DNA of 64,000 bases, taken from contig LCRY01000002.1 in assembly GCA_001004905.1 (NCBI GenBank), positions 1,559-65,558 of the forward strand. Direction: 5' to 3'. The stretch comes from Parcubacteria group bacterium GW2011_GWA1_56_13 (GTDB lineage Bacteria; Patescibacteriota; Minisyncoccia; Phycocordibacterales; Phycocordibacteraceae). This document shows, one piece after another, positions 32,365 through 64,000 of this stretch (positions are counted from its first letter, which is position 1; each line of letters starts with the position of its first letter). The notes under the pieces are model-generated. The model was not told the DNA's origin, did not search any database, and saw only the letters and a list, made by a program, of their open reading frames with translations. A program made the translations under genes and the position numbers.

Positions 32365-32591
32365 AAGATTTTAACACACTCGTGACAGAGCATTTTAAAA
32401 TTAATTCCGCGAATATTACGGATATGCTTACCGCGCAGGACGTCCCAGAATGGGATTCGATGAATTATCTTCTCTTTATCGCGGACGTTGAAAAGGAGTA
32501 TGATGTCTCGTTCACTATGGATGAAGTACTCGGAGTACAGACTCTGGGAGATATTAAAAAGATACTGCGAGACAAATCGGTCAACGTATGA
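32361..32591 (+). CDS. Acyl carrier protein
   Basis: 76 aa. Phosphopantetheine-attachment context WDSMNYLLFIADVEKEY (DSM in place of DSL). Confidence 0.7.
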   Translation: MKDFNTLVTEHFKINSANITDMLTAQDVPEWDSMNYLLFIADVEKEYDVSFTMDEVLGVQTLGDIKKILRDKSVNV

Positions 32592-33719: not shown

Positions 33720-33720
33720 T

Positions 33721-35825: not shown

Positions 35826-35854
35826 TTGAAATTTGTAGATATATGTATTAGAAT
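35826..35854 (+). promoter_or_regulatory. Sigma70-like promoter, near-leaderless transcript for the pseB-like gene
   Basis: -35 TTGAAA (35826-35831), 17-nt spacer, -10 TAGAAT (35849-35854). ATG 35864 is ~9 nt downstream. Lies in the only ~60-nt gap of this part of the locus. Confidence 0.45.
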
Positions 35855-35863
35855 GCGAAGATT

Positions 35864-36880: not shown

Positions 36881-36882
36881 CC

Positions 36883-37851: not shown

Positions 37852-37870
37852 CAACATAACCTTTCCACCC

Positions 37871-40050: not shown

Positions 40051-40063
40051 TGCAAAATAGGCC

Positions 40064-42540: not shown

Positions 42541-42542
42541 CT

Positions 42543-44847: not shown

Positions 44848-44858
44848 CATCTTTGCAT

Positions 44859-46079: not shown

Positions 46080-46083
46080 TGCT

Positions 46084-48164: not shown

Positions 48165-49390
48165 ATGGTAAGAAACATATATTAATGATTGGCGGAGGCC
48201 TCCAGGAGGTCGAGGCAGTTCGACAGCTTAAGGCCGCTGGATGGACTGTCGGCGTCTCGGATCGGGATTCTGATTGCCCGTGCGCAAACATTGCTGATTA
48301 TGTATTAGAGGCAGACGGTCGCGATCCAGAACGAATATTGCAAGAATTGTTGATTAGAACACCTGACAATCTCCCACGGGTAGTATTTACACTGACAGAA
48401 CTGACCACAACGGTGGCGATATTATTACACGCACTAAAACTGCCAGCTCCATCGATCCTATCGGTAGTGGTGAGTCAATCGAAAGCATTATCGAAAGATT
48501 GTTGGCTACGTAAGGGAGTACGGACGCCGAACGGGGTTGTTGTTTCTGATGCCCAGGGATTGGCATCTATCCCCACACGAAGCGCACCGCCCTATGTTAT
48601 AAAACCAGATGTTTCTTCTGGCGGTAGAGGGGTTGTTTTAGTAAAGTCTGCAGACAAATTATCCGAAGCCGTACGTAATGCTATTGACTGTTCAGCAAAT
48701 AGCCGATGTGTAGTTGAAGAATACATACACGGGACTATTCACGATGGTAATGCATATTTTTCCAATGGCATATTTGTTCCTCTAAGTATTTCTGATCGGT
48801 TCACCGGTGATTCAATTGCGGTCGAATCTGGTGCAATTTGCCCCTCATGTTTGCCACCGAACAAGCAAAAAGATTTTTTCTTTCTTTTTGAAGAATCTTG
48901 TCGGGCATTGGGAATTGAACAGGGTCCCGTTAAAATTGACGCGTTATACGATGGAAAAAATTTTTACGTATTAGAGGTCGCAGCACGTTTGCACGGTCCA
49001 CGCGGTAGTTTGTATTTGATCCCCGCCAGTTTTGGTATATCACTATGTGTACCGGTATTTGATGCGATTCAGAGCAATAGCATGGATATAGAATGGGATG
49101 CGACACGCGTAAAGCAGTTTTGTGTATACGAGGATATCCGAATTGCCGAGCGAGGTGTAATAATAAGTATTGAAGGTATTGAGATTGCTAAACATGAAGA
49201 GGGTATTGTAGATATTCAACTATTAAAAAATATAGGCGATGAGATACGCACACCACACGATTCAAACGAAGTTACTGGGTTTATTTTTGCCGTTGGAAGT
49301 AACGAAATAGAATGTAGAAAACGGATAAAGACCGCTCATGATGTGTTGCACATACGTCTCGTGAATAGGCCGCATACTGAGCTTAATTAA
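48161..49390 (+). CDS. ATP-grasp-fold ligase
   Basis: HILMIGGGLQEVEAV. YVIKPDVSSGGRGVVLVKS. Low-GC island. Confidence 0.6.
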   Translation: MNGKKHILMIGGGLQEVEAVRQLKAAGWTVGVSDRDSDCPCANIADYVLEADGRDPERILQELLIRTPDNLPRVVFTLTELTTTVAILLHALKLPAPSILSVVVSQSKALSKDCWLRKGVRTPNGVVVSDAQGLASIPTRSAPPYVIKPDVSSGGRGVVLVKSADKLSEAVRNAIDCSANSRCVVEEYIHGTIHDGNAYFSNGIFVPLSISDRFTGDSIAVESGAICPSCLPPNKQKDFFFLFEESCRALGIEQGPVKIDALYDGKNFYVLEVAARLHGPRGSLYLIPASFGISLCVPVFDAIQSNSMDIEWDATRVKQFCVYEDIRIAERGVIISIEGIEIAKHEEGIVDIQLLKNIGDEIRTPHDSNEVTGFIFAVGSNEIECRKRIKTAHDVLHIRLVNRPHTELN

Positions 49391-49400
49391 ACATAAATCC

Positions 49401-50567
49401 ATGAAACGTATCGCAATTGTACAAATCGCCCCTTCCGATGTTAAGGGAAGATTAAGGGACTACAATGTAATTCGTCCACTGCAGGAAAGCGGTTTATTTG
49501 ACCATATCGTGTTGGCATATCCTGACCTTCCTGGGGCGGAAATTATCGATGATTTGGCCAAGGAATGGGGAATCGAGTCATTTCGAGGCGATGTAATGAA
49601 TGTGACCCGACGCATTTTGAACTGTGCAAAAAAATACGATGCGCATACTGTGGTGCGAGTGTTGTCGTGGTATTTTTTTATTGATATTGATCTTGTCAAA
49701 CGAATGGTTCGATTTCTCGAAGAAAGCGATTCTGACTACGTGCCTCTCCCTCGTGATTTTGACATCCGGTTTGGCGCTGATGTTACACAAACTCGATTTT
49801 ACGAAAAAATGGATTCTTATTTTAATAAGGACTCGACTCTATTAAAACTATATGCATTTAATCCGTGGGGATTCTGCGAGCTGCACCAGGAATTATTCAA
49901 AGTCAAGGAATTCAAAGATGTTCCAACATATACCGCAAATTATTTTAAACAATTGAGACAGACTATGGATCTAGTCTGGCCAGAACAATGGGATTCACAA
50001 GACACGCCCATAGATCCATACAGAATGGTAATAAAATATAAAAAAGGAAGCGGGAAGCATGCGTTAGATCTTGCTTGCGGTTATGGAATGGGGAGTAATC
50101 TATTGCACGAGAATGGTTTTTGCGTATTGGGTGTAGATATAGATCCTGCTGTTATTACTACGTGCAAAAAGAGATATGAAGAAAACAGCAAGCTTTCATT
50201 TTTATGTGAAGATTATCGCAATCTCTCTTTTCAGAAGGAATTTGACATCGTAACTTCAATCCATACTATGGAGCATGTTCCCGATGATTCCGATTTTCTC
50301 AGTCATTGTCATTTATGGTTGAGAAAAGGCGGCACGCTATTTTTAGAAGTACCTCTTCTGATGAAGAGACCATTTTATGGAATTGGCGAGCCAATTAACC
50401 CAAAGCACGTGAAGGAATACGATCTGAAGGCTTTAAAGACTCTAGTGTCAAAGTATTTCCATATTATCAAAGTATTCGGAGTTACTCGCGGGTATTATGT
50501 TGAGGAGTGCAAAGCGAGAAACGCGGCATTAATTATAGCCACAAAGACAAGAACGGACGGACTGTGA
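49401..50567 (+). CDS. Fusion protein: N-terminal cytidylyltransferase-like domain + C-terminal class I SAM methyltransferase
   Basis: N-terminus MKRIAIVQIAP..VIRPL resembles SpsF-type cytidylyltransferases. C-terminus LDLACGYGMGSNLL...FDIVTSIHTMEHVPDD is a methyltransferase. Low-GC island. Confidence 0.5.
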   Translation: MKRIAIVQIAPSDVKGRLRDYNVIRPLQESGLFDHIVLAYPDLPGAEIIDDLAKEWGIESFRGDVMNVTRRILNCAKKYDAHTVVRVLSWYFFIDIDLVKRMVRFLEESDSDYVPLPRDFDIRFGADVTQTRFYEKMDSYFNKDSTLLKLYAFNPWGFCELHQELFKVKEFKDVPTYTANYFKQLRQTMDLVWPEQWDSQDTPIDPYRMVIKYKKGSGKHALDLACGYGMGSNLLHENGFCVLGVDIDPAVITTCKKRYEENSKLSFLCEDYRNLSFQKEFDIVTSIHTMEHVPDDSDFLSHCHLWLRKGGTLFLEVPLLMKRPFYGIGEPINPKHVKEYDLKALKTLVSKYFHIIKVFGVTRGYYVEECKARNAALIIATKTRTDGL

Positions 50568-50579
50568 TATAACAAACCT

Positions 50580-51386
50580 ATGACTGATCTTGCCCGTAAA
50601 GCCCAAGAGATACGAAGTCATGCGCTGTGCATGATTCATGCAGCGCGTTCTGGACATCCGGGAGGTTCACTTTCTGTCGCGGATATGCTCGCTGTACTCT
50701 ATTTCGATGAACTCAATCTGCGTCCACGATCTCCGCGCTGGAACAACCGGGATAGATTTATTCTTTCCAAGGGGCATTCGTGTCCGGCGCTCTATGCCGC
50801 GCTTGCGATGCGCGGCTATTTCCCGAAGAAGGAGCTCCTCGGCCTGCGCAAAATCGACCATTTCCTCGAAGGGCATCCCGATGTAAAGATTCCCGGCGTT
50901 GATGCGCCCTCCGGCTCGTTAGGCATGGGGCTTTCGCAGGGCCTCGGCATGGCGCTCGGCGGACGGTATCTAAAAAAGAAATTCCGCACGTATGTCCTCC
51001 TCGGCGATGGCGATATGCAAGAGGGAAACACCTGGGAAGCGTTCATGGCCGCGGGATTCCATAAGGTCGATACACTCGTCGCTTTACTGGATGCAAATGG
51101 CATTCAGGGTGACGCACGCGTTGAAACTCAGATGGACTACGAGCCAGTTCTAGAGAAAGTGCGTGCGTTCCGTTGGCATGTTGAGGAGATTGATGGTCAC
51201 GACGTACGGCAGATACGGCGCGCGCTCAAGAATGCACGTGCCCAAAAAGGGAAGCCCTCGTTCATCCTCGCGCGTACAGTGAAAGGCAAGGGAGTGTCTT
51301 TTATAGAAGACCAACTCGCTTGGCATGGGAGTGTGACGATGAAGGACGAAGAACTCGCGCAGTCGCTTGCAGAATTACGCGTATGA
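50580..51386 (+). CDS. Transketolase, N-terminal (ThDP-binding) subunit
   Basis: HPGGSLSVADMLAVLYF. SKGHSCPALYAALA. GDGDMQEGNTWEA. Confidence 0.9.
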   Translation: MTDLARKAQEIRSHALCMIHAARSGHPGGSLSVADMLAVLYFDELNLRPRSPRWNNRDRFILSKGHSCPALYAALAMRGYFPKKELLGLRKIDHFLEGHPDVKIPGVDAPSGSLGMGLSQGLGMALGGRYLKKKFRTYVLLGDGDMQEGNTWEAFMAAGFHKVDTLVALLDANGIQGDARVETQMDYEPVLEKVRAFRWHVEEIDGHDVRQIRRALKNARAQKGKPSFILARTVKGKGVSFIEDQLAWHGSVTMKDEELAQSLAELRV

Positions 51387-52357
51387 AAAAAACCAAACTC
51401 CAATTCTGGAAGAAGGGTGAGAATGTTTCGTTACGCGAAGCTTTCGGGCGTATATTGGTACATCTCGGTAAAATGCGCGATGATTTCGTGCTCTTTGATG
51501 CGGACATCGCCGGCGGTACGGGAGCGAAGCCGTTCGTGACGGCGTTCCCCAAGCGAGTGATGCAATTTGGCATTGCAGAGCAGAATATGATGGCGGCCGC
51601 AGGCGGTTGTGCGGACATTGGCATCATCCCGGTCGTGAGCACCTTTGCCGCGTTCGGCGCAATGCGCGCGCACGAACAATTCCGCACCGCTATTGCGTAT
51701 CCGAACCGCAACGTGAAGCTCTGTTGCTCGCATCTGGGCGTTGATACGGGACCTGACGGCGCGACCGCGCAAATGCTCGAGGACCTTGCGGTGATGCGCT
51801 CGATTCCGGGCGTTACCGTCGTCGTGCCGGCCGATGCCAATGAGCTTATGCTCGCTTTCGACGCTGTGCTCAACCATACCGGCCCAGTATATATGCGCAT
51901 CGGACGCAGTCCCACTCCGGTTATTTCTGATGCGAAGCAGCCGTTTGTCATCGGTAAGGCGACGCGCATGTGTGAGGGCACTGATGCTACTATCGTCGCA
52001 TGTGGCGTTATGGTGGCACGTGCGTTTGTCGCGGCCGACGTGCTCAAAAAACAGGGCATTCATGTCCGTGTCGTGAATCTCTCGACCGTCAAACCGCTCG
52101 ACGAGCGGGAGCTCCGCGCGGCGGCGCGAGAGACGGGAGCAATTCTTACTGCCGAAGACCATAATGTTCGCGGCGGCATGGGAAGCGCGGTTGCCGAGTT
52201 TTTCGCCGAGCATCACCCGGTGCCGATGAAACTGCTCGGCGTTCAGGACCGCTTCGGCAAGTCGGGCGAGGCGGCGGAACTTGCGGAGAAATACGGACTG
52301 ACCGCGCGGCACATCATACAAGAGATTAAAAAACTTATCCGCCGGAAGCATTCCTAA
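51383..52357 (+). CDS. Transketolase, C-terminal (pyrimidine-binding) subunit
   Basis: Start ATG 51383, ATGA overlap. MQFGIAEQNMMAAAGG. 324 aa. Confidence 0.9.
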   Translation: MKKTKLQFWKKGENVSLREAFGRILVHLGKMRDDFVLFDADIAGGTGAKPFVTAFPKRVMQFGIAEQNMMAAAGGCADIGIIPVVSTFAAFGAMRAHEQFRTAIAYPNRNVKLCCSHLGVDTGPDGATAQMLEDLAVMRSIPGVTVVVPADANELMLAFDAVLNHTGPVYMRIGRSPTPVISDAKQPFVIGKATRMCEGTDATIVACGVMVARAFVAADVLKKQGIHVRVVNLSTVKPLDERELRAAARETGAILTAEDHNVRGGMGSAVAEFFAEHHPVPMKLLGVQDRFGKSGEAAELAEKYGLTARHIIQEIKKLIRRKHS

Positions 52358-52361
52358 ATAT

Positions 52362-53105
52362 ATGCATACTCAAAAATCACGGGTTGTCTTCGTTACTGGC
52401 GCGAGCCGCGGCATCGGGCAGAAGGTCGCCAAGATGCTCCTTGTGGCGGGGTATCGCGTCGCCTGCGGATATCGTACTCATAAAGACGGTGCACTTGCAC
52501 TTGCGCGCACATACCCCGAGGCATTCCCGGTACGCTCGGATGTAAAGAGCCGCGCATCAATAAAGAAAGCGCTTACTGCGACAAAACGCCGCTTTGGGAA
52601 GAGTCCTGATATCCTCGTCAACAACGCCGGCATTGCCGATGAACGTCCGCTCGAGTCCATCACGGACGCGCAATGGGACCATCTGCTCGCAGTAAATTTG
52701 CGCGGTCCGTTCATTGTCGTGCAGGAGGCATTGCCCGCCATGCGCGCGCAGAAGTGGGGAAGGATAGTGAACATCGTTTCCATAGGAGGGCAGTGGGGCG
52801 GTATGCGACAGGTGCATTACGCCGCGGCAAAGGCGGGGCTCATCAATTTCACCCGCTCCCTGGCGAAGTTGTACTCGCGCGAAGGTATCACCAGCAATGC
52901 GGTTTCTCCCGGGCTGGTAGAAACGGATATGAGTAAAAAGGAAATGCGCTCAAAGGCGGGGAAACAAAAAGCCGCACAGATTCCGATCGGCCGACTTACC
53001 AAACCGGAAGAAATTGCCGCAGCGGTTATGTTTCTCATATCAGACGACGCCGCCTCCATTACCGGCCAGACGCTGAATGTGAACGGCGGAATGCTGTTCT
53101 CCTAG
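52362..53105 (+). CDS. SDR-family oxidoreductase (FabG-like)
   Basis: VFVTGASRGIGQKVAKML. YAAAKAGL. Confidence 0.85.
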   Translation: MHTQKSRVVFVTGASRGIGQKVAKMLLVAGYRVACGYRTHKDGALALARTYPEAFPVRSDVKSRASIKKALTATKRRFGKSPDILVNNAGIADERPLESITDAQWDHLLAVNLRGPFIVVQEALPAMRAQKWGRIVNIVSIGGQWGGMRQVHYAAAKAGLINFTRSLAKLYSREGITSNAVSPGLVETDMSKKEMRSKAGKQKAAQIPIGRLTKPEEIAAAVMFLISDDAASITGQTLNVNGGMLFS

Positions 53106-53110
53106 CATAT

Positions 53111-54319
53111 ATGAAGACCATTCTTATCCTCGGGGCCGGCAAGGAGCAGGTAAATGCCATCGCCCGCGCAAAGGAAAAGGGTATACGCACCGTTGTTCTT
53201 GACATGAACAAAGAGGCGGAAGGGGCTTTGTACGCGGATGAGTTTTACGCTATCAGCACGCGGGACATCCCCGCGATACTCGCGTTTCTTAAAACGTACA
53301 ACAAAAAGATAGACGGTGTCATGACCATAGCGAGCGATATTCCGCATTGTGTGTCGGCTGCCGCGGAGTTCTTGGGCGTACCGCATATTTCGCTTTCTGT
53401 TGCGCAGGTATGCGTGCAGAAGTTTCGTATGAAAGAAACGCTTCAGGAGGGGGGCGTCCGCGTACCCGCGTTTGCTCCGGTCGATTCAGTCGAATCGCTC
53501 ATGGCCTTCATCAAGACGGTAGGGTATCCGGTCGTCATAAAGCCGGTGGACAATTCGGGCGCCCGGGGGGTTTTGCGGCTTAGTGAAGATATAGATGTGC
53601 CGTGGGCGTTCGAATACGCAAAAAAATATTCTTTTTCCGGCAACCTTATTGTGGAACAGTATATCGAAGGGCAGCAGATAAGCACCGAGGGCATCATGCA
53701 CGAAGGCATCTTTTATTGCACCGGCTTCTCCGACCGCAATTATGAGCGGATCGAAAAAACAGCGCCCTATCTCGTGGAAGACGGCGGAGATATCCCGTCT
53801 GCGTTAGATCCAGGCGAACAAGCGCTCGTCAAGGCAGAATTTGAGAAAGCGGTACGGGCGCTTGGTATAGACTGGGGCCCCGCTAAAGGAGACATGGTAC
53901 TCGGTAGGGACGGGAAAGCGTATGTGATAGAGGTGGCGGCAAGGCTTAGCGGCGGCAATTTTTGCTACGACAAGGTGCCGTGGTCGACCGGCGTTGACAT
54001 CGTCGACATACTTATTGACATGGCGGTCGGAAATTCCGTCGATGCAAAACGTTTTGTGCCGACCAAGGATATGGCGACTTCGCAGCGGTATTTTTTTCCT
54101 TTGCCCGGCACGATTAAAGAGATACGGGGGTTAGAGAAGGCCGAGCGCATGCCTCACGTCAAAAAAGTAGACCCGTGGGTGCAGGCGGGGGATGAAATCT
54201 CCGCCATCGTGAACCATCCATCTCGAGTCGGGTATGTCATTACCTGCGCGCCAACGCTCGCGGAGGCGGTGCAAGCGGCCGAAAGAGCAGTGCAATCCGT
54301 GGAATTTATCATGGAGTAG
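53111..54319 (+). CDS. ATP-grasp-fold ligase
   Basis: ILILGAGKEQVNAIARAKEKGIRTVVLD. VVIKPVDNSGARGVLRL. Confidence 0.65.
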   Translation: MKTILILGAGKEQVNAIARAKEKGIRTVVLDMNKEAEGALYADEFYAISTRDIPAILAFLKTYNKKIDGVMTIASDIPHCVSAAAEFLGVPHISLSVAQVCVQKFRMKETLQEGGVRVPAFAPVDSVESLMAFIKTVGYPVVIKPVDNSGARGVLRLSEDIDVPWAFEYAKKYSFSGNLIVEQYIEGQQISTEGIMHEGIFYCTGFSDRNYERIEKTAPYLVEDGGDIPSALDPGEQALVKAEFEKAVRALGIDWGPAKGDMVLGRDGKAYVIEVAARLSGGNFCYDKVPWSTGVDIVDILIDMAVGNSVDAKRFVPTKDMATSQRYFFPLPGTIKEIRGLEKAERMPHVKKVDPWVQAGDEISAIVNHPSRVGYVITCAPTLAEAVQAAERAVQSVEFIME

Positions 54320-54325
54320 AAATAT

Positions 54326-55102
54326 ATGCATAAGAAACTTGGCGTCGCAACGCGCTTTTACGGGCTCACCGAGGGGGATGTACAGCGCCTCGCGGCGTGG
54401 GTGGATGCGGCTCGTGCGGTTGTTCCCGCATCAAGCATATTTGTGGCCATTAACAGTGAAGCCGACCGTTCAGGGAGTCAGGATTTCATGCGCGAACACT
54501 ATCCGGACGTTGTGACGTTTCCGGTCACACCGTGGGGAAGGGTGGTGCAGGCGCCAAATGCTCTTCTTCTGAAGTGTGCGGAACGGCAAGTGAGCCACCT
54601 GCTGTTCGCGAGCACCGAATACCCGGTGACCCAGTCGCTCCTGTCACTGCTCCAGTCCCACTCCGATGATCAAACGCTCGTGGTCGGCGCACGTCTCGCG
54701 GGCCATGATTTTAAGACGCCGCCGGGCGGGCGTGTGCTCGTATCAGGCGCAAGCGGCCTCCAGATTCCCTGGAACACGTGCGCTTTGTGGTCAACTGGGC
54801 ACCTCATCCACACCGGCTTCGTGTTAACCGCTGACGCGGTGCATGATCCCGATAATGCGGGAATGGAAGAGATGGGGACCATCGCCGCGCAGCAGATATT
54901 ATGGCCGGGCAGGGCGGCGGCCAAGCTCGTCGCTCCGCGCGCGGGCGACTTAGTCCCGAATACCCACGGGTGGACTATCCAGCGCCGTGAACGGCATGCG
55001 CGCATTCTGGAGTCAAAAAACTCCCGTTCCGTGACGCAACTGGAGCGTCTCTCGTTATCTGCTCCCGAGGTCTGCCATATCGACGATGCCTTAACTAGTT
55101 AG
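54326..55102 (+). CDS. Hypothetical protein
   Basis: 258 aa. Codon usage consistent with neighbours. No recognisable motif. Confidence 0.3.
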   Translation: MHKKLGVATRFYGLTEGDVQRLAAWVDAARAVVPASSIFVAINSEADRSGSQDFMREHYPDVVTFPVTPWGRVVQAPNALLLKCAERQVSHLLFASTEYPVTQSLLSLLQSHSDDQTLVVGARLAGHDFKTPPGGRVLVSGASGLQIPWNTCALWSTGHLIHTGFVLTADAVHDPDNAGMEEMGTIAAQQILWPGRAAAKLVAPRAGDLVPNTHGWTIQRRERHARILESKNSRSVTQLERLSLSAPEVCHIDDALTS

Positions 55103-55187
55103 CGCAATGGCGTAGGAAAATTCAAATGATATGGTATTATTTTTCCGGAACGCGCCATAACCGGCACTACCCTTACAGGAGGGCATC

Positions 55188-55397
55188 GTGGAAGATAGGC
55201 GTAAGATCGAAATCCTGCGATTGATTGACCAATACAATCGCGACGACAGCGCGGGTGTTCCCGTATCTCCATTCATCGCGCGGTACGAGGGGACGCTTGC
55301 CAGCGTGAGTGAGAAAGTCGGGGTTCACGTCGAGGAGCTGGACGAGTTCCTGACCATCATGGATAGCGAGTTGCCGAACGATTATCTCACGGGGTAA
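55188..55397 (+). CDS. Hypothetical small protein (69 aa)
   Basis: GTG start preceded by a perfect Shine-Dalgarno AGGAGG at -12..-7 and followed by a terminator hairpin. Acidic, no TM. Confidence 0.35.
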   Translation: MEDRRKIEILRLIDQYNRDDSAGVPVSPFIARYEGTLASVSEKVGVHVEELDEFLTIMDSELPNDYLTG

Positions 55398-55426
55398 AAC
55401 CCGGCAGACATACTGCGGGCACAACC

Positions 55427-55457
55427 GGCTCCTCTCGCGAGGAGCCAAGTTTCTTTT
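55427..55457 (+). terminator. Rho-independent terminator
   Basis: GGCTCCTC-tcgc-GAGGAGCC perfect 8-bp GC-rich stem followed by aagtttcttttg. Confidence 0.45.
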
Positions 55458-55491
55458 GCCCGTCCACGCGGGTTATAGTTATGACGACGAT

Positions 55492-57258
55492 ATGAAAGGC
55501 ACGATACAGGCGCTCCGACAGGCGTTCGGCAGGTACCGCTGGCACATTGGAGCGCTGGTGGTGTTCGGTATACTGAGCCCCCTCCTTGAAGGAATCGGCA
55601 TCAATGCGGTCATTCCGCTCATGTCATTTTTCATGGGCGGCGGCGACGGCGCGACGGATTTCATCACGAATGCGATACGGGGCACGTTCGGTTTCTTCGG
55701 GATACCGTTCAGCTTCCGGTATCTGCTCGCCTTCATCCTCTGCTTGTTCATAGTGCGAGCGATTTCCGTCGTTGTGTTCGGCTATCTTCGCGGCTGGATA
55801 GGCGCGGACTTTCTCGGGAAAGAAAGCGAGGAAGTACTGCGCCGGGCGCTGTTTGCCTCATGGCCGTTCTCGCTGAAGCAGAAGATAGGAACGATGCATA
55901 ACACGCTCGTGCGCGACGTCCAGCAAACGGGAGTTCTCCTGGGCGCGATGGTTCAGGTCATACAATCCTTCAGCGGCTTTCTCATGTACCTCCTCGTGGC
56001 GGTCAATATCTCGCCGGTAATGACATTCTATGCGATAGGTGGCGGAGCCGTTCTGCTGTTCCTTTTGCGGCCGCTCCTTCGCCGTACGGAGCGCATCGGG
56101 CAGCAAACCGCGAGAGTCGAGAAGCAGTTTGCGCAATTCCTGAGCGAGCACATCATCGGAATGAAATCGATCAAAGCCGCGGGAATGGAGCGCGCCGCCA
56201 TCAAAAATGGTACGGCGCACATCCGCCTCTTGCGTCATCTCTCGATACGCCAATCACTCGTCGGCTCGGTGAGCTCAAGTTTTTTCCAGCCGTTCTCCAT
56301 TGTCCTCGTGGTGCTACTGTTCCTCTTGACGTACCACACGCCGACATTCAGCATCATTTCCTTCGCCGCTTCCCTCTATCTGATACAGAAAATATTCGCC
56401 TACCTTGAGTCCGGACAGAACGCCATGCAATCCGTAAGCGGGCTGCTGCCGTATGCCAAGAACATCGCGGAATTCAAACACAATCTGGACCAGCATCGCG
56501 AATCATTCGAAGGAACAAAGCCATTCGTGCTTAACAAGGAACTCGCTTTCCAGAGAGTTTCATTCGCGTATGGCGAGGACAAGCCGATCCTGAGCGGCCT
56601 TACGTTTTCCATACGCGCAGGGGAGACCGTCGGGCTCATCGGGCCTTCGGGCGCCGGAAAGACGTCGGTCGCCGACCTGCTGCTACGGCTCTTCAAGCCG
56701 ACCGAGGGCTCGCTCACGCTCGATGGCGTGCCGAGCGAATCAATATCCCTCGAAGCGTGGCGCAAGAATATCGGTTACGTATCGCAGGACGTATTCCTAT
56801 TGAACGCCACCATCGAAGAAAATATCCGATTTTACAACCAGGACTTGACCATAAAAGACATCGAGAGCGCCGCGAAGCAGGCGAATATATATGACTTTAT
56901 CAAAGAGCTGCCCGAAGGATTCGGCACGAGGACCGGAGACCGCGGCGTCATGCTTTCAGGCGGCCAGCGCCAGCGCGTGGCGCTCGCCCGCGCGCTCGCC
57001 GGCCGTCCCAAGCTTCTCATATTGGATGAAGCGACAAGCGCGCTCGACTCGGCTTCGGAGAAACTCATACAAGAAGCCATCGGCGCCTTGCACGGCAGCG
57101 TAACCGTGTTCATTATCGCGCACCGGCTAAGCACCATCGAACGCTCGGACCGCCTGTTGGTGCTTGAGCAAGGAAAGATCACGGAAGAAGGCGCCCCGCA
57201 GGAGCTTCTCGGGCGCCCGGATTCCTATTTTTACAAATACCACGACCGCCGCGGATGA
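55492..57258 (+). CDS. ABC exporter, fused permease/ATPase (MsbA/PglK-like)
   Basis: Start ATG 55492 (MKGTIQALRQ); the track start 55456 is a TTG. Six TM. Walker A GPSGAGKTSVADLL. ABC signature LSGGQRQRVALARALAGRPKLLILDEATSALD. Confidence 0.9.
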   Translation: MKGTIQALRQAFGRYRWHIGALVVFGILSPLLEGIGINAVIPLMSFFMGGGDGATDFITNAIRGTFGFFGIPFSFRYLLAFILCLFIVRAISVVVFGYLRGWIGADFLGKESEEVLRRALFASWPFSLKQKIGTMHNTLVRDVQQTGVLLGAMVQVIQSFSGFLMYLLVAVNISPVMTFYAIGGGAVLLFLLRPLLRRTERIGQQTARVEKQFAQFLSEHIIGMKSIKAAGMERAAIKNGTAHIRLLRHLSIRQSLVGSVSSSFFQPFSIVLVVLLFLLTYHTPTFSIISFAASLYLIQKIFAYLESGQNAMQSVSGLLPYAKNIAEFKHNLDQHRESFEGTKPFVLNKELAFQRVSFAYGEDKPILSGLTFSIRAGETVGLIGPSGAGKTSVADLLLRLFKPTEGSLTLDGVPSESISLEAWRKNIGYVSQDVFLLNATIEENIRFYNQDLTIKDIESAAKQANIYDFIKELPEGFGTRTGDRGVMLSGGQRQRVALARALAGRPKLLILDEATSALDSASEKLIQEAIGALHGSVTVFIIAHRLSTIERSDRLLVLEQGKITEEGAPQELLGRPDSYFYKYHDRRG

Positions 57259-57290
57259 GGCAGGGCATGCGCAAAAACCGGACGTGGCTG

Positions 57291-57299
57291 TGGTATCAT
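57291..57299 (+). promoter_or_regulatory. Extended -10 element
   Basis: TGgTATCAT, 10 nt upstream of ATG 57310. Confidence 0.25.
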
Positions 57300-57309
57300 T
57301 TCGTCCATC

Positions 57310-59469
57310 ATGGAGGGTAACGGTACGGCTCGCCAGATAGCACGGTGGGTGGCGCTCAGTGCGCTTTTCTTGCTTCCGCTCACGCCGCTTGTCGTCGTGA
57401 ACGGTTTTTTCTTTCCTTTCATTACCGGCAAGGCGTTTTATTTGCGTTCACTAATAGAGATAGCGGTTGCCGCATGGGCGGTCCTTGCGTTCCTTGACAG
57501 GGCATATCGGCCGCGCTTTTCCTGGATCGGTGCGGCGGTCGTCGGCTTCGTTCTCTGGATGTTCGTGGCCGACGCGTTCGCGCTGAATGCGATGAAGGCC
57601 TTCTGGAGCAACTTTGAACGCATGGAGGGATGGGTGCTCCTCATCCACTTGCTCGGATTCTTTTTCGCGGCGAGCGCGGTACTGCGGGTCGAGCGCAAGT
57701 GGCGCGCCTGGTTCCTGACATCGCTCGGCGTTTCGCTTCTCATTTCCGTCTATGCGTTGTTGCAGCTTGCGGGCGTCCTCGCGATACACCAGGGTTCGAC
57801 GCGCATAGACGCATCCCTCGGCAATTCCGCCTATCTCGCCATCTACTTCCTGTTCAGCATTTTCGTCGCCCTCTGGCTCGCGCTCACGGAACAGCGCGCA
57901 TGGCTTAAGTGGTCGCTCATCGCGCTTGCGGTCCTGGAAGGCGTCCTCATCTTCTTTACCGAGACGCGCGGTACGATCATAGGGCTCGTACTCGCGCTCG
58001 CACTCGCGGCGCTTCTCACTGCGGTCACTGCGAGCAGACACATCCGCAGCTATGCCATAGGTGCGCTCGCTCTCATTCTCGTTCTCACCGGCGGTTTTTA
58101 TCTTGCGCGCCATTCATCGTTCGTGCAGAACAACCATGTGTTACAACGAGTTGCTTCCATCTCACTGTCCGACGGCCAAACTCGCTTCACGCTTTGGCGC
58201 ATGGCTTTCGAAGGGGTCAAGGAGCGTCCGCTCCTCGGCTGGGGACAGGAGGGATTCAATCATGTGTTCAACAAATACTACGACCCCTCCCTCTATCAGC
58301 AGGAGCAGTGGTTCGATCGGGCGCACAACACGTTCATCGACTGGCTTTCCGCCGGCGGCGTCCCGGCATTCTTGTTGTATCTTTCGCTCTTCGGTACGGC
58401 CGTCCTGTTGCTCTGGAGAAGCACCGAACTGTCGCGTCCTGAACGCATCGCGCTCACTGCCGCGTTCCTTGGCTACGCCGTTCATAATTTTTTCGTCTTC
58501 GACAACCTTTCCTCGTACCTTTATTTCTTCGCCCTCCTCGCGCTCGTGGATTCGCAGGTCGCGCGGCCCATCACACGACTTGAAACGGCACCCGAAGTTC
58601 CTGCCGCCGACGGCATGGCATATCTGCTGCCCATCGGCGCCGTCGCCGCGCTCACGCTCGTGTGGACCGTAAATATTACCGGTATGCAGACGGCATCCCG
58701 GCTCATTACCGCGCTCTCGTCCTCGAATCTTTCGGATAGCACCGCGATTTTTCAGGATTTCGCCGCGCATCCGACCTTTGCCTCGCAGGAAATCCGCGAA
58801 CAGCTCATCGCGTACGCGGCCGCGGTTGCACAAAGCGCATCGCTGCCGGACGATGCGAAACAGCAAATACTCGCGCTCGCTATACACGAGATGCAAAGAC
58901 AAGTCGTCGCATACCCAATGGATGCGCGTGGGCGTTCCCAACTCGCCTATATCTACCGCGTCGCTGGCGATACCGAGAGCGCTCTAAAGGAGCTCGACGC
59001 CGCCCTCGCTCTTTCTCCAAAAAAGGAACAGTTTCTCGTGGATAAGGGTGTCATTGAGTGGAATACGGGCGACATGCAGGGGGCGCAACGGGATTTCAAT
59101 GCCGCATACGAGCTTGGGCCGCAGTTCTCCGCCCTCGCGGCTTATGCTGCGGCCGGCAACATCGCCGTTGGTGACGTTGCGGTGGGCGATAAGATACTTC
59201 TTGCCGCCTTCGGCACGACGAACCCGACGAACGACATTCTCTCGCTTGCGTATTACCTGAGCAAGAACTGGCCGCGGCTTATCGCGTTCTGGAAGGCGCG
59301 CGCCGCTTCCGCAACGGGTCCCGAACCATGGTTCTCGCTCGCCGCCAGTTACTATGCCGCCGGTGACGCGGCCGGTGCCATAGCAACCTTGAATGCCGCG
59401 GTCGCAAAATACCCAGAGGCCTCTTCCTCCGCAGCAGCCGCGCTCAAACAGATACGAGAAGGAAAATGA
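57310..59469 (+). CDS. Wzy_C (O-antigen ligase / O-oligosaccharyltransferase-like) membrane protein fused to C-terminal TPR repeats
   Basis: ~12 TM N-terminal domain with FFTETRGTIIGL (Wzy_C R-x-G region). C-terminal ~250 aa of TPR-like repeats (ALKELDAALALSPKKEQFLVDKGVIEWNTGDMQGAQRDFNAAYELGP). Confidence 0.7.
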   Translation: MEGNGTARQIARWVALSALFLLPLTPLVVVNGFFFPFITGKAFYLRSLIEIAVAAWAVLAFLDRAYRPRFSWIGAAVVGFVLWMFVADAFALNAMKAFWSNFERMEGWVLLIHLLGFFFAASAVLRVERKWRAWFLTSLGVSLLISVYALLQLAGVLAIHQGSTRIDASLGNSAYLAIYFLFSIFVALWLALTEQRAWLKWSLIALAVLEGVLIFFTETRGTIIGLVLALALAALLTAVTASRHIRSYAIGALALILVLTGGFYLARHSSFVQNNHVLQRVASISLSDGQTRFTLWRMAFEGVKERPLLGWGQEGFNHVFNKYYDPSLYQQEQWFDRAHNTFIDWLSAGGVPAFLLYLSLFGTAVLLLWRSTELSRPERIALTAAFLGYAVHNFFVFDNLSSYLYFFALLALVDSQVARPITRLETAPEVPAADGMAYLLPIGAVAALTLVWTVNITGMQTASRLITALSSSNLSDSTAIFQDFAAHPTFASQEIREQLIAYAAAVAQSASLPDDAKQQILALAIHEMQRQVVAYPMDARGRSQLAYIYRVAGDTESALKELDAALALSPKKEQFLVDKGVIEWNTGDMQGAQRDFNAAYELGPQFSALAAYAAAGNIAVGDVAVGDKILLAAFGTTNPTNDILSLAYYLSKNWPRLIAFWKARAASATGPEPWFSLAASYYAAGDAAGAIATLNAAVAKYPEASSSAAAALKQIREGK

Positions 59470-60479
59470 TCCTACAGGAAAATGTGCTGCTCGCCCCTCT
59501 CACGACATTTCATATCGGCGGGTCGGCGCGCATTTTCATAGCGGCGCGGAGCGAGAAGGATATTGAAGACGCAATAGTGCTCGCTCGCACGCGCGGCCTC
59601 CCGCTCCATGTTCTGGGCGGAGGTAGCAACATACTCGTGCCGGACGCTGGCGTTGACGGCGTCGTTCTTCGCATCCAGCTCGCCGGCGTCGCGTTCCAGA
59701 ATGATGGCGCCGACACACTCCTTGTCGCAGGCGCGGGCGAATTGTGGGATACGGTCGTCGACGCGGTCGGCACACGCGGCATGTTCGGCATCGAGAACCT
59801 CGCCGGTATCCCGGGCACGGTCGGCGGAGCGACCGTGCAGAACATCGGCGCCTACGGCGCGGAGCTTGCCGATGTATTCGAATATGCCGACACGATCGAT
59901 CGTACGACCGGCGTTCATGCGCGTATCGGGAAAAAAGACGCGGCGCTCGCGTACCGCACCAGTTTTTTCAAAAATAATCGGAATTGCATCATCACCGCGG
60001 TCGCGTTGCGTTTTTCGTCGGCCGGCGCGCCGAATATTTCTTACCCCGATCTCGCCCGCGCGCGCTCCGCGGGCGAACCGCTCGCGGCGCCCGCCGATAT
60101 CGCACGCGCGGTGCGCGCTATCCGCGCGAAAAAATTTCCCCGCAATGACGCGGAGGGAACCGCAGGGTCATTTTTCAAGAATCCGGTCGTCTCGCGCGAG
60201 CTCGCGGACTCGCTCCGCGCTCGTTTTCCCGACCTCCCGACTTTTCCGCAGGAGGACGGAAGAGTTAAACTGGCGCTTGCATGGCTTTTGGACCACGCGT
60301 TGTCGCTCAAAGGGTACGCGGGGGGACCAGTGCGCCTCTACGAGAAGCAACCACTCGTCGTTGTTGCGCGCGCGGGCGCGCGTGCGCACGATGTCGAGGC
60401 GCTTGCGCGCCATATTGCGGAGCGCGTGCAGAAAGAACTCGGTATCGGCATCGAGCGTGAAGTGGAACTATTTGGATAA
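59466..60479 (+). CDS. murB: UDP-N-acetylenolpyruvoylglucosamine reductase
   Basis: TTFHIGGSARIFIAARSEKDIEDAIVLARTRGLPLHVLGGGSNILV FAD-binding signature. 337 aa. Confidence 0.9.
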   Translation: MILQENVLLAPLTTFHIGGSARIFIAARSEKDIEDAIVLARTRGLPLHVLGGGSNILVPDAGVDGVVLRIQLAGVAFQNDGADTLLVAGAGELWDTVVDAVGTRGMFGIENLAGIPGTVGGATVQNIGAYGAELADVFEYADTIDRTTGVHARIGKKDAALAYRTSFFKNNRNCIITAVALRFSSAGAPNISYPDLARARSAGEPLAAPADIARAVRAIRAKKFPRNDAEGTAGSFFKNPVVSRELADSLRARFPDLPTFPQEDGRVKLALAWLLDHALSLKGYAGGPVRLYEKQPLVVVARAGARAHDVEALARHIAERVQKELGIGIEREVELFG

Positions 60480-60778
60480 ATTATTTTTCGTACGCTTATC
60501 CCCGACACGCTGAAATGGCATCGCGTATTGTCCCACCATTCACATTTTTAAGCCACATCTCGCCTCTCAGAGCGTCTTGTGCAGATGGAAAAACGTTCGC
60601 GCGCGATGGGCGCAGGACGATGCCATTCAGTATGACGGGGTTATCCACATGTGGCGCGTCTAAGCGCACAAAAAATTTTCTGACGCGGGATAATGAAATG
60701 CAGAAACGTTTGCGCATGGAACCATTCCGCGCACAGACGGGTCGACATATCAGCCGTAAACCTAATTTCGCAACCACC

Positions 60779-60844
60779 ATGGCAAAAAAGCGTAAGGCCG
60801 CGAAGCGAACGAAGAAGCGCAAGGCTGCAAAGCGACGCCGCTAG
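60779..60844 (+). CDS. Putative 21-aa poly-basic peptide
   Basis: MAKKRKAAKRTKKRKAAKRRR, encoded by a ~21-nt tandem DNA repeat and followed 12 nt later by a strong terminator. The upstream in-frame extension (track ORF 60515..60844) looks non-coding. Confidence 0.25.
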   Translation: MAKKRKAAKRTKKRKAAKRRR

Positions 60845-60855
60845 TTTCGTGAAAG

Positions 60856-60890
60856 AAAAAATCCCGTCTTAACGCGGGATTTTTTTCTTT
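60856..60890 (+). terminator. Rho-independent (bidirectional-type) terminator
   Basis: aaaaaaTCCCG-tcttaacg-CGGGAtttttttcttt: stem flanked by an A-tract upstream and a T-tract downstream. Confidence 0.6.
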
Positions 60891-60919
60891 TAGACGACAC
60901 GTAGGCGCAGTGGTATAAT
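60891..60919 (+). promoter_or_regulatory. Sigma70-like promoter for leaderless secA
   Basis: -35 TAGACG (60891-60896), 17-nt spacer, extended -10 TGgTATAAT (60911-60919). secA ATG at 60928 is 8 nt after the -10. Confidence 0.5.
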
Positions 60920-60927
60920 CTTTTTCG

Positions 60928-63462
60928 ATGTTGGGACTGTCCAATTTGTTCTCAAAAAATCAATCCGCGGCCTTTTTAAAGGCCGCGGCGCCTATCGTCG
61001 CGGCAACGAACGGGCTTTCCGAGGAGCTCGCCGGGCTTCCGGACGAATCGGTGCGCGCGCGGCTCTCCGAGGTGCGTGTACGTGCGAGAGAAACCGGAGC
61101 AACGCTTGAAACCGATATTCCGCTCGTGTTCGCACTCGTGCGCGAAGCATCCCGCCGGACGTTGCGCCAGCCGCATTTCGACGTCCAGCTCATCGGCGGC
61201 CTCGCTCTGCTTCGCGGAAGGATCGCGGAGATGCGCACCGGTGAAGGCAAGACGCTCGTCGCGACGCTTCCTGCGGTTTTCCACGCGCTTGCCGGCAAAG
61301 GAGTGCAGGTTGTTACGGTGAACGATTATCTCGCGCGCCGCGACGGCGCGTGGATGGGACAGGTCTACAATTTTTGCGGCCTCACGGTCGGGGTCATTAC
61401 GAGCGCGGGTGCCTATCAATACGACGCATCGCACGTGCCGCAAAAGGAAGATACGGAACGCGATGCGGAGGGTTCCTTCAAAGTATTTTATGATTACCTG
61501 CGTCCCGTGACGAAAAAAGAAGCGTACGCTTGCGACGTCACATACGTGACCAACAATGAACTCGGCTTCGATTACCTGCGCGACAACACGGCCTACGACG
61601 CATCGCAGATCGTGCAGCGCGCATATCATTACGCGATCGTGGACGAGGTGGACTCCATTCTGATCGACGAGGCGCGCACGCCGCTCATCATCAGCGGCCC
61701 CTCGGGAGATTCGCAGGATCTCTACGGACGCTTCGCCGATATCGTGCGCAGTTTTGAAGCGGAGAACGATTATACGGTCGACGAGAAGCAGAAGGCGGTC
61801 CAGATAACCGACGCGGGCATGCGCAAAGCGGAGCAGGCGCTCGGCCTGGAGAATCTCTATGCCGAAGGAGGAGTAAAATACGCGCACCACCTGGAAACGG
61901 CGGTACGCGCCAAGGCACTGTTCCATAAAGATAAGGAATATGTGGTGTCCGCCGGAGGCGGGGGCGAAATCGTCATCGTGGACGAGTTCACGGGACGGCT
62001 CCAGCCCGGCCGCCGCTGGTCGGAGGGTCTCCACCAGGCCATCGAGGCCAAAGAAGGGGTAAAAGTGCAGGCGGAAACGCGCACCTACGCGACCGTGACT
62101 TTCCAAAACCTCTTCCGGATGTACGAGCGGCTCGCCGGCATGACAGGTACGGCGCTTTCTTCCGAAGAGGAGTTCTATACCGTGTACGGGCTCGATGTCG
62201 TGGTCGTGCCCACGAACAAACCCTCACAGCGCAAGGACCACGATGACCTCATTTTCCAGACAAGCGTGGGAAAATACCGGGCGGTCGCGCGCGAGGTCAA
62301 AGAGCGGCATCAAAAAGGACAGCCGGTCCTCGTGGGAACCGTCTCCATCGAGGACAACGAGACCGTGAGCTCGTATCTCAAGGATGCGGGCGTACCGCAC
62401 GAAGTGCTGAACGCGAAGAATCACGAACGCGAAGGAGAGATCATCGCCGAGGCGGGCACGGAGGGGCGCGTCACGGTCGCGACGAACCTCGCCGGCCGCG
62501 GCGTTGACATCAAATTGGGCGGCGCACTCGCCACGCCCGACGCGCGCGCCTCGGTCATCGCCAAGGGCGGTCTCATGGTCGTCGGCACCGAGCGGCATGA
62601 CGCGCGCCGCATCGACAACCAGCTGCGCGGCCGCGCCGGCCGCCAGGGCGATCCGGGAGAGACCAGATTTTATGTTTCGCTCGAGGACAAGCTCATGCGC
62701 GTTTTCGCGTCCGAGACGCTGAAGAAGGTGATGGGGCGCTTCGGCATTCCCGAGGACGAGCCGATAGAAAGCGCGATGATAACCAAATCGCTCGAGACCG
62801 CGCAGGGACGCATCGAGGGATTCAATTTCGATTCCCGCAAACAGGTGCTCGCCTACGACGACGTGATGAATACCCAACGCCTCGCAATCTACGCGCGCCG
62901 CCGCGCCGCGCTTACGGGAAGCGACGCGGAAGTGGAGGGGTTGGTGCAAGCGCTTCTCGGCAACGACGAGGCGGCGCGCGCCGCATTTGCAAATAAGAAG
63001 ACCGAATTCGGCGACGCGTTCGTCCCGCATTTGCGACGGCTCGTTCTGCAGGTCACCGACACGTTCTGGCTCGAGCACCTGGAAACCATGGATTACCTGC
63101 GCCGCTCGGTGTCGCTGCGCGCCTACGGCCAACGGGACCCCTTGATAGAGTACCGTCGCGAAGGGCTCGCTCGCTTCCGTCAGCTTGAGGAGAATATCCG
63201 CTCTACGGTCGCCGAGGCCCTGCCGCGCATGATGAACATGGACGATGCGCGCGTCCGGGCGGAAGAGGCGAAAATACGTGCCTCGCTCACCGAAGCGGGT
63301 AAGGAAGAGCAGGGCGCGCAGGCACCGCTCGTGAAAGCGGCCGGGTACGGCAGAAATGATTTCGTTACCATCAAAAAGGGCGGGGAAACCAAAAAACTCA
63401 AGTATAAAAAGGCCGAACCCCTCCTCGCCGAGGGCTGGACCATCGTCCCCGATGCCCCTTAA
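60928..63462 (+). CDS. secA: Preprotein translocase ATPase SecA (short form, no C-terminal Zn-finger)
   Basis: 844 aa. AEMRTGEGKTLVATLPAVFHALAGKGVQVVTVNDYLARRD. DEVDSILIDEARTPLIISG. TNLAGRGVDIKLGG. Confidence 0.95.
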   Translation: MLGLSNLFSKNQSAAFLKAAAPIVAATNGLSEELAGLPDESVRARLSEVRVRARETGATLETDIPLVFALVREASRRTLRQPHFDVQLIGGLALLRGRIAEMRTGEGKTLVATLPAVFHALAGKGVQVVTVNDYLARRDGAWMGQVYNFCGLTVGVITSAGAYQYDASHVPQKEDTERDAEGSFKVFYDYLRPVTKKEAYACDVTYVTNNELGFDYLRDNTAYDASQIVQRAYHYAIVDEVDSILIDEARTPLIISGPSGDSQDLYGRFADIVRSFEAENDYTVDEKQKAVQITDAGMRKAEQALGLENLYAEGGVKYAHHLETAVRAKALFHKDKEYVVSAGGGGEIVIVDEFTGRLQPGRRWSEGLHQAIEAKEGVKVQAETRTYATVTFQNLFRMYERLAGMTGTALSSEEEFYTVYGLDVVVVPTNKPSQRKDHDDLIFQTSVGKYRAVAREVKERHQKGQPVLVGTVSIEDNETVSSYLKDAGVPHEVLNAKNHEREGEIIAEAGTEGRVTVATNLAGRGVDIKLGGALATPDARASVIAKGGLMVVGTERHDARRIDNQLRGRAGRQGDPGETRFYVSLEDKLMRVFASETLKKVMGRFGIPEDEPIESAMITKSLETAQGRIEGFNFDSRKQVLAYDDVMNTQRLAIYARRRAALTGSDAEVEGLVQALLGNDEAARAAFANKKTEFGDAFVPHLRRLVLQVTDTFWLEHLETMDYLRRSVSLRAYGQRDPLIEYRREGLARFRQLEENIRSTVAEALPRMMNMDDARVRAEEAKIRASLTEAGKEEQGAQAPLVKAAGYGRNDFVTIKKGGETKKLKYKKAEPLLAEGWTIVPDAP

Positions 63463-63483
63463 TTGTGCATTTGGGGCATGCCG

Positions 63484-63514
63484 TTCATTTAGGACACGCC
63501 GTGTCCTAAATGAA
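63484..63514. repeat. Perfect palindromic hairpin (REP / IS200-end-like)
   Basis: ttcatttaggacacg-c-cgtgtcctaaatgaa: 15-nt arms, exact reverse complements. Located between the convergent secA stop and the transposase stop. Confidence 0.5.
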
Positions 63515-63520
63515 TATAAC

Positions 63521-63976
63521 CTAGAGGACTTCAAGATTACTACTCGCCTGTGCGAGCTCTGGTGCTGAGATAATTGACCTTATTTCCGCGTCTTGTTCCT
63601 TATTCGTACCAAGCATATGGCGCAGGTCGGAAGTGTGAAGGATGGAAGGAAAATTTCGTATTCCGTTGTAGTCAAGATAACTACTCCAACGATATTTATG
63701 CAGATATTCGAGAGCATTTTTGTGATCGTGTAGGGTGCCCAAGCGCCATTGTGTATGTGTCAGATCCAAAGGATTGAGATGAATGTAGTAGGGGATATAT
63801 CTGAAATGAGAATCTCGCTCTATCAAGACCTTTCTAAATGTTCCTTGCCACAATACGCCCGTACGTCCGTATTTTTCATTGAAATATTTTGCATAGCCCA
63901 TATTGAGTTTTCGCATAAAAAGAGACAAGGACCCATCCCGTACTGGGGAGGCAAGAATGTGGTAGTGATTTGGCAT
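63521..63976 (-). CDS. IS200/IS605-family or REP-associated (RAYT) HUH tyrosine transposase
   Basis: 151 aa. N-terminal MPNHYHILASP (HuH motif). Size and composition typical of TnpA(IS200)/RAYT. Lower GC than the flanking DNA. Confidence 0.7.
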   Translation of the reverse strand: MPNHYHILASPVRDGSLSLFMRKLNMGYAKYFNEKYGRTGVLWQGTFRKVLIERDSHFRYIPYYIHLNPLDLTHTQWRLGTLHDHKNALEYLHKYRWSSYLDYNGIRNFPSILHTSDLRHMLGTNKEQDAEIRSIISAPELAQASSNLEVL

Positions 63977-64000
63977 AAGACAGAACGCGTGTATGCGGAC

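Follow-up and report, generated by a model that had tools for sequence, protein, structure and literature searches.

How does a ribosome find the start of secA in a genome where a promoter appears to run right up to the start codon? We addressed this question in a 64,000-nucleotide (nt) stretch of Parcubacteria group bacterium GW2011_GWA1_56_13 (contig LCRY01000002.1, positions 1,559 to 65,558 of the forward strand), hereafter called the window, in which secA begins 8 nt after a promoter-like element. An initial annotation of this DNA described the element as TAGACG, a 17-nt spacer, and TGgTATAAT, followed at 8 nt by the secA ATG, and stated that no room was left for a Shine-Dalgarno (SD) sequence. 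The description is exact to the base, and the statement was borne out in that a purine-rich stretch is absent from the 8 nt preceding the ATG. We consider it probable that secA has a leaderless start, that this is one case of a lineage-wide arrangement, and that the genes downstream within operons are reached by reinitiation at ATGA overlaps. The parts of the secA locus are as follows.

About 60850-60890, + strand: intrinsic terminator of the upstream unit, predicted by folding (A-run, GC stem UCCCG/CGGGA, U-run)
60891-60896, + strand: -35 element TAGACG, with four of six matches to TTGACA and a 17-nt spacer to the -10 element
60911-60919, + strand: extended -10 element TGgTATAAT, with the TG one base 5' of the hexamer
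60920-60927, + strand: 8-nt gap ctttttcg between the -10 element and the ATG; putative transcription start at G60927 or A60928
60928-63462, + strand: secA coding sequence, 844 amino acids (aa), with start codon ATG at 60928-60930

Terminator, promoter, and 8-nt gap together make up the 83-nt intergenic gap 5' of secA, and we found no upstream leader open reading frame (ORF) in this gap that could be coupled to secA. The terminator has a predicted folding energy of -19.9 kcal/mol (z = -4.68), a stability equaled by 0 of 200 shuffles, and its T-tract runs into the secA -35 element; a T-rich tract also lies 5' of the -35 element in most relatives' secA loci. Because this strong terminator stands directly upstream, a leadered secA transcript would need terminator read-through. 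The start codon itself is supported from several sides. The SecA encoded here and that of Thermus thermophilus (2ipc_A) align from their first residues (1 to 161 with 1 to 158) and share the initial MLGL. In the public annotation of the source scaffold, secA starts at this ATG as well, all Kaiserbacteria-like relatives likewise begin secA with ATG, and no start farther upstream is possible because an in-frame TAA (60916-60918) lies inside the -10 box. The sequence TGNTATAAT occurs once in the window, counting both strands, and this single copy, against a chance expectation of 1.04, is the one 8 nt 5' of the secA start. When we scanned positions 50000 to 64000 for promoters, two sites reached 10 of 12 matches, one of them the secA site, which alone had the TG; generic promoter-like sites were not enriched in that interval (8 found versus 8.2 in shuffles).

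We compared the start of secA in 34 genomes, namely the window and 33 relatives; 29 of the 34, including the window, are Kaiserbacteria-like and 5 are more distant Paceibacterota. The closest secA loci come from metagenome-assembled genomes named Candidatus Kaiserbacteria, Paceibacterota, or Patescibacteria in collections with one genome per species, at 70 to 85% protein identity. An identical SecA protein is found on groundwater metagenome scaffolds, one of them 75,871 nt long, and a neighboring window protein is also present on NCBI assembly GCA_001005015.1. A TAnnnT hexamer stands 6 to 11 nt 5' of the secA ATG in 32 of the 34 genomes, at a distance of 6 nt in 2 loci, 7 nt in 2, 8 nt in 22, 9 nt in 4, 10 nt in 1, and 11 nt in 1, and the TG extension precedes it in 26 genomes. 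Anchored on the -10 element, the columns (n = 34) read T27 G32 n T34 A34 T30 A33 n T33. Three columns at the 17-nt spacing are also recognizable across the 34 genomes (T in 23; T or A in 19 and 9, respectively; G in 23), with TAGACC or TAGACT recurring, so that the T-(T/A)-G of the -35 element is present in most relatives, not all. Extended -10 promoters tolerate weak -35 elements. The spacer, the 8-nt gap, and the bases flanking the -10 element are unconserved. Such conservation, with a near-invariant -10 element between a variable spacer and a variable gap, is what an extended -10 promoter would show and an RNA element would not, and by its sequence the element at secA is a clade-conserved, sigma-70-type extended -10 promoter that abuts the start codon.

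None of the 34 genomes has an SD-like 4-mer at positions -20 to -1 of secA; of 20 non-Patescibacteria loci returned by the same secA search and used as a control, 15 do. The same secA arrangement occurs in Paceibacterota labeled Adlerbacteria and Zambryskiibacteria; a distant locus labeled "Saccharibacteria" has GGAGG before the secA ATG instead (L044).

The initial annotation listed four further starts with this geometry (ATGs 18459, 35864, 4345, and 57310) and concluded that leaderless initiation is the default for operon-first genes. Motifs and spacings at all four proved exact, and similar sites precede three more genes of the window.

4331-4347, + strand: TATACT (4331-4336), 8 nt, ATG 4345 of a VirD4/TraG-like coupling protein gene, after a 405-nt gap; the public gene call uses the same ATG
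18444-18461, + strand: TGcTACTAT (18444-18452), 6 nt, ATG 18459 of a GtrA family gene, identified by a Pfam GtrA domain
35849-35866, + strand: TAGAAT (35849-35854), 9 nt, ATG 35864 of a PseB-like dehydratase gene, the first gene of a tightly coupled block of about 19 kb
57291-57312, + strand: TGgTATCAT (57291-57299), 10 nt, ATG 57310 of a Wzy_C/TPR protein gene
55474-55494, + strand: TATAGT, 12 nt, ATG 55492 of an ABC transporter gene, immediately 3' of a terminator hairpin; in the public gene calls the start is ATG 55492 instead of the TTG farther upstream
27573-27590, + strand: TGgTATAGT (TGGTATAGT), 6 nt, ATG 27588, inside the 3' end of the upstream gene, with the ATG in an ATGA overlap
1926-1946: TGCTATCGT, 9 nt, ATG 1944, likewise inside the 3' end of the upstream gene and with the ATG in an ATGA overlap

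Judged by these distances, the gene at 57310 probably has a leader of 1 to 3 nt, and the ABC transporter gene would be near-leaderless with a leader of about 5 nt. The sites at 27588 and 1944 are candidate internal leaderless promoters within long operons. At the GtrA gene, the Pfam domain begins at residue 5 counted from ATG 18459, or at residue 20 if the ORF is extended to the upstream TTG. The geometry is also found in relatives: PseB-like homologues have TAnnnT 7 to 9 nt before the ATG in four of five metagenomic relatives (two of the four do not differ from each other over the region shown), and obg has TGnTAnnnT 6 to 10 nt before its ATG in at least 13 relatives.

We measured the association between this motif and start codons in two ways. 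Starting from the motif, we located all TGNTANNNT sites in the window, recorded whether an ATG followed at 6 to 10 nt, and compared the result with dinucleotide shuffles and decoy motifs. An ATG follows 12 of 54 sites; shuffled sequence gives 4.5 +/- 2.2, and a count of 12 was reached in 1 of 200 shuffles. ORFs of 100 aa or more begin at seven of the 12 ATGs; for decoy motifs, with approximately twice as many sites, the mean was 1.4 and the maximum 3. Across 224 kb of Kaiserbacteria-like loci, 46 of 203 extended -10 (TGNTANNNT-type) sites are followed by an ATG at 6 to 8 nt and 35 of these open long ORFs, among them secA, obg (at least 13 loci), and several other families.

Starting from the genes, we searched for TAnnnT upstream of start codons. 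This first-gene test used a curated gene list from the source genome, covering the window and both scaffold ends, that is, one 76-kb scaffold and not a whole genome. The curated list replaced a test on greedily called ORFs, which was contaminated by shadow ORFs, missed small genes (for example, a 76-aa acyl-carrier-like ORF at 32361-32591), and made first-ATG errors (for example, an ATG inside the promoter in L003 and L022). A minus-strand ORF at 63521-63976 was left out as a first gene, as the real start of this Y1 transposase gene lies beyond the window. TAnnnT is present 6 to 10 nt upstream of 9 of 19 unit-first starts (47%) versus 6 of 47 internal starts (13%; Fisher p = 0.007), and control offsets in the same upstream regions gave 0 to 2 of 19. 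One of the nine hits (60779) is probably due to chance; two more first genes, the ABC transporter gene at 55492 and the transposase gene, have a box 12 nt upstream. We found no box at the right distance for the murD-like gene at 568, the FkbM gene at 18424 (- strand), or gatB. Overall, we estimate from these upstream sequences that about 40 to 45% of transcription-unit-first genes share the leaderless geometry. The geometry is significantly enriched at first genes of this scaffold, but given this share and the leadered counter-examples described below, the geometry marks a large class of genes and not the default.

The initial annotation also warned that ORFs starting at upstream TTG or GTG codons are likely mis-extended. 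For a naive longest-ORF track this is correct: for most such starts in the window, an ATG farther downstream shows the promoter geometry or forms an overlap with the stop codon of the preceding gene. It does not carry over to the public gene calls, which already use ATGs 55492, 6771, and 6159, nor to GTG 18877, which we regard as a genuine start because a Rossmann motif begins at residue 9 and no ATG is nearby.

In the genes that lack a start-abutting promoter, SD sites are not enriched in its place. SD-like 4-mers at positions -18 to -4 precede 3.9% of internal genes versus 11.8% of random 15-mers, and with the same naive gene caller they precede 7% of starts in Kaiserbacteria-like sequence versus 45% in non-Patescibacteria loci. 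SD-like motifs are enriched neither before internal genes nor before the remaining first genes. The internal genes are packed closely: 27 of 47 internal junctions in the window are ATGA overlaps (examples are at 1944, 7625, 9778, 22430, and 46974), and 42 of 47 are either overlaps or gaps of 10 nt or less. From these junctions we infer coupling by termination and reinitiation. A is mildly enriched at positions -9 to -5 of internal genes. Nearly all genes of the window are on one strand, and the tightly coupled blocks reach 17 to 19 kb (18459-35804 and 35864-55102).

As an mRNA-side counterpart, the absence of SD motifs here fits the loss of the anti-SD sequence in some Parcubacteria. In a study of rRNA and ribosomal proteins, Tsurumaki et al. 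(2022, RNA, PMC9297842) detected CCTCCT in no more than 48% of the 16S genes of Parcubacteria; one subgroup of Parcubacteria lacks the anti-SD motif, bS21 is often absent, and SD helices were inferred not to form, with no mention of leaderless mRNAs or of an initiation route (PMC9297842). That subgroup belongs to the same broad lineage as the window genome, and we found no literature placing Kaiserbacteria in a uL1-lacking or anti-SD-lacking group.

In Escherichia coli, start-site selection favors a purine after a pyrimidine, 7 to 9 nt downstream of the -10 element. With an 8-nt gap, the A of the secA AUG is the ninth base after the -10 element. Position -2 is C in 22 of the 34 genomes; at position -1, 20 genomes have a purine and 14 have a pyrimidine. 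Given the pyrimidine-purine rule, the 8-nt gap, and the bases at -2 and -1, transcription of secA is expected to start either with the AUG itself, at its A, or with the base that precedes it. The mechanism we propose is that RNA polymerase, directed by a sigma-70-type extended -10 promoter placed after the terminator of the upstream unit, would start there and make an mRNA with a 5' untranslated region of 0 to 1 nt and no ribosome-binding site. Such an mRNA would be translated by the 5'-end-dependent (leaderless) route, in which the ribosome and initiator tRNA bind the 5'-terminal AUG. In Kaiserbacteria-like Paceibacterota as a lineage, SD pairing would be unused, a large minority of first genes would be leaderless or nearly so, and downstream genes would most likely be translated by termination-reinitiation at ATGA overlaps.

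Several observations weigh against this account. The leader of 0 to 1 nt is a prediction from promoter geometry. The canonical gap after a -10 box is 6 nt, and the modal gap of 8 nt at secA is longer; this gap, together with C at -2 and the purine at -1 in 20 of 34 genomes, allows a 1-nt leader. Two of the five sites first noted (35864 and 57310) have gaps of 9 to 10 nt, which allow a leader of 1 to 3 nt. About half of the first genes lack the geometry, and the neighboring unit at 60779 has a conserved long leader. Because of these two facts, SD-independent initiation on leadered mRNAs must also exist. In addition, one convincing SD-like site, the only one seen in the window, does occur: AGGAGGG stands 4 nt before GTG 55188, which opens a 69-aa ORF (+ strand) that is present in the public gene calls and has TGGTATTAT upstream at 55132-55140 (region 55132-55397). 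Finally, Rfam and tRNA scans found no rRNA or tRNA in the window from which the anti-SD sequence could be read, and a search of the first 80 loci gave no 16S 3' region.

The first alternative is that the promoter is real but that transcription begins slightly 5' of the AUG, so that the mRNA is "near-leaderless" with a leader of 1 to 5 nt and its initiation may differ mechanistically from the strict 5'-AUG pathway. This is quite possible, although we lean away from it. The modal gap of 8 nt at secA, the gaps of 9 to 12 nt at 35864, 57310, and 55492, and the box 10 to 14 nt upstream in gatB relatives all agree with it, and C at -2 with a purine at -1, as seen in 20 of 34 genomes, fits a start at -1. 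In the other 14, however, a pyrimidine occupies position -1, which places the pyrimidine-purine step at the A of the AUG. Against it also stand the gaps of 6 to 7 nt at 18459, at 27588, and at obg in several loci. Leaders of 5 nt or less are, moreover, usually classed as leaderless and behave as such.

A second alternative is that the secA transcript is leadered, arising by read-through or from an upstream promoter, and that the TATAAT-like element acts in the RNA as an AU-rich, unstructured, S1-type translation enhancer resembling the non-SD ribosome-binding sites of group B described below. The SD-independent initiation on leadered mRNAs that must exist, for example at ORF 60779, would accommodate such an enhancer, as would the mild A enrichment at -9 to -5 of internal genes. 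We nevertheless consider it improbable: the strong terminator lies immediately upstream of secA, the conserved letters are sigma-70 contacts (TG at -15/-14; the T, A, and final T of the hexamer) accompanied by TTG or TAG at 17 nt as a -35 element, and the motif is enriched at first genes but not at internal genes, whereas a true ribosome-binding site would precede both. The last alternative, in which an AT-rich hexamer lies near a start codon by chance within a short intergenic region, agrees with the generic promoter scan and with the single copy of TGNTATAAT per window but is hardly credible, as the element keeps the same distance in 32 of 34 genomes despite diverged noncoding surroundings, recurs at obg and PseB-like genes, and is enriched relative to shuffles, decoy motifs, control offsets, and internal genes; these comparative data, and above all the conservation in relatives, effectively refute it.

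Actinobacteria, Deinococcus, and archaea are well-known users of leaderless initiation, and the start of secA described here resembles a class that includes such bacteria. In group C of the GeneMarkS-2 classification, a Pribnow box lies 6 to 8 nt from first-gene starts in 25 to 50% of operons, and in group B a motif precedes first and internal genes alike and so cannot be a promoter (PMC6028130). Group C, which includes Mycobacterium tuberculosis, other Actinobacteria, and Deinococcus deserti, is like secA in having TANNNT near the AUG of first genes and no SD sequence, and its 25 to 50% of operons compare with the 40 to 45% of first genes estimated here. It differs in that its remaining genes mostly keep SD sites, whereas here SD-like motifs are not enriched elsewhere; the lineage also differs (candidate phyla radiation [CPR]/Patescibacteria), as do the modal gap of 8 nt at secA and the strong conservation of the TG extension. 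On every sequence-level feature of group C, secA is of this known bacterial leaderless type. The Bacteroidetes-type non-SD initiation of group B likewise involves little SD pairing, and the mild upstream A enrichment at internal starts here is reminiscent of it; however, TAnnnT is specific to first genes here and has promoter anatomy, and because it is not common to internal genes, it is not a group B non-SD ribosome-binding site.

Two further comparisons come from E. coli. In the lambda cI (PRM) and Tn1721 tetR mRNAs, the A of the AUG is the first transcribed base, and this 5'-terminal AUG is bound by the ribosome together with initiator tRNA. Those are rare exceptions in an SD-using host, whereas here the arrangement would serve an essential housekeeping gene and many others. 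The secM-secA operon offers a likeness in that control is exerted at the 5' end of secA, where a possibly selected hairpin lies in the present case (see below). Unlike secM-secA, the locus studied here lacks an upstream leader ORF as well as the space to hold one, and secA appears to be an independent leaderless unit.

Our literature search on CPR bacteria (Patescibacteria, Parcubacteria, and Saccharibacteria) found no description of leaderless genes. The secA locus and its relatives offer a testable initiation mechanism for Parcubacteria that have no anti-SD sequence, namely start-abutting promoters combined with ATGA coupling. For work on these genomes, start codons should be predicted with a -10-box (group C) model and not with an SD model, promoters can be read directly from the sequence just 5' of first genes, and CPR genes expressed in heterologous hosts will have to be supplied with ribosome-binding sites. 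No general principle is changed by the finding. We tentatively extend it, as a reading that we would not yet favor, to the proposal that Kaiserbacteria-like Paceibacterota abandoned SD-led initiation entirely and replaced it with two routes, promoter-made 5'-terminal AUGs and ATGA reinitiation within very long operons, leaving a few leadered genes with dedicated conserved 5' structures, such as the one at 60779. If true, this abandonment of SD would supply the mRNA-side mechanism that is missing for the anti-SD loss of Parcubacteria.

The gene at 60779 belongs to a small unit next to secA.

60641-60844, + strand: leadered mini-unit between murB and secA, conserved in relatives' loci

The unit begins with a perfect TTATCCACA (DnaA-box-like) site, followed by a promoter that consists of GCACAA, 17 nt, and GATAAT (60689-60694). 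The leader of about 77 nt (60703-60778) is conserved and structured, with GAAACGTTTG, a covarying hairpin, and CAGACGGGTCGAC; across the window and its relatives the RNA element takes the form GAAACGUUUG, covarying hairpin, CAGACGGGUCGAC. ACCACC stands directly before ATG 60779, which opens a 21-codon ORF rich in Lys, Arg, and Ala that extends to 60844 (MAKKRKAAKRTKKRKAAKRRR) and is longer and repetitive in one relative (L014). The mini-unit is also upstream of secA in L001, L003-L007, L009, L010, L012-L015, L021, L022, L026, L030, and L050, and in 18 loci we found compensatory changes in 5 of 13 predicted leader pairs. Region 60641-60844 could represent a novel cis-regulatory leader or small RNA. 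We rejected a known noncoding RNA at 60480-60850, where an Rfam search at E <= 1 gave terminator-like noise only. The TTATCCACA box was also rejected as a sign of oriC, its near-matches in the window being at chance level (10 versus 7.9).

Within the start of the secA coding sequence there is a second structure.

60965-60988, + strand: hairpin CCGCGGCC-N8-GGCCGCGG, a perfect 8-bp GC stem covering secA codons 13 to 21, or +38 to +61 of the putative mRNA

We tested this hairpin in alignment A1 (columns 41-48 and 57-64) using 29 relatives and 500 shuffles. Pairing is retained in 80.6% of cells, compared to 72.5 +/- 1.3 in shuffles, and 16 cells are changed on both sides, compared to 6.0; in each case 0 of 500 shuffles reached the observed value. 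The double changes fall at pairs that join two wobble positions. Four of the eight pairs join fixed first and second positions of Ala codons, and a fifth pair is likewise fixed by the amino acids. Because about half of the pairs are forced by codons, selection on RNA structure is suggestive only, and the secA hairpin is possibly a selected RNA structure.

Directly after secA, on the minus strand, lies an IS200/IS605-type Y1 transposase gene of 215 aa (63521-64000; L081 12594-13241). It replaces obg, which follows secA in most relatives, and it runs past the end of the window.

One first gene with an apparent leader is the epimerase gene at ATG 6771. A perfect TATAAT stands about 80 nt upstream and overlaps the stop codon of a ComEA-like gene (region 6685-6770), and the resulting leader of about 75 nt would contain a CCCCG...CGGGG hairpin, a possible regulatory or attenuator structure. 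The GtrA (+ strand) and FkbM methyltransferase (- strand) genes diverge from a 34-nt gap (18425-18458) with a shared AT-rich element, which is TGCTACTAT when read on the + strand but TAGCAT when read on the - strand; the leader of the minus-strand gene would be about 11 nt. The VirD4/TraG-like gene encodes 521 aa in the window and is followed by a 73-codon Lys/Glu-rich ORF in another frame (5890-6160). Its homologue is a single gene elsewhere, with 602 aa on scaffold_245 (L084 6126-7934) and 591 aa in LCSC01000007.1 (L085 3835-5610), and the difference between the assemblies is a frameshift or indel in the low-complexity tail.

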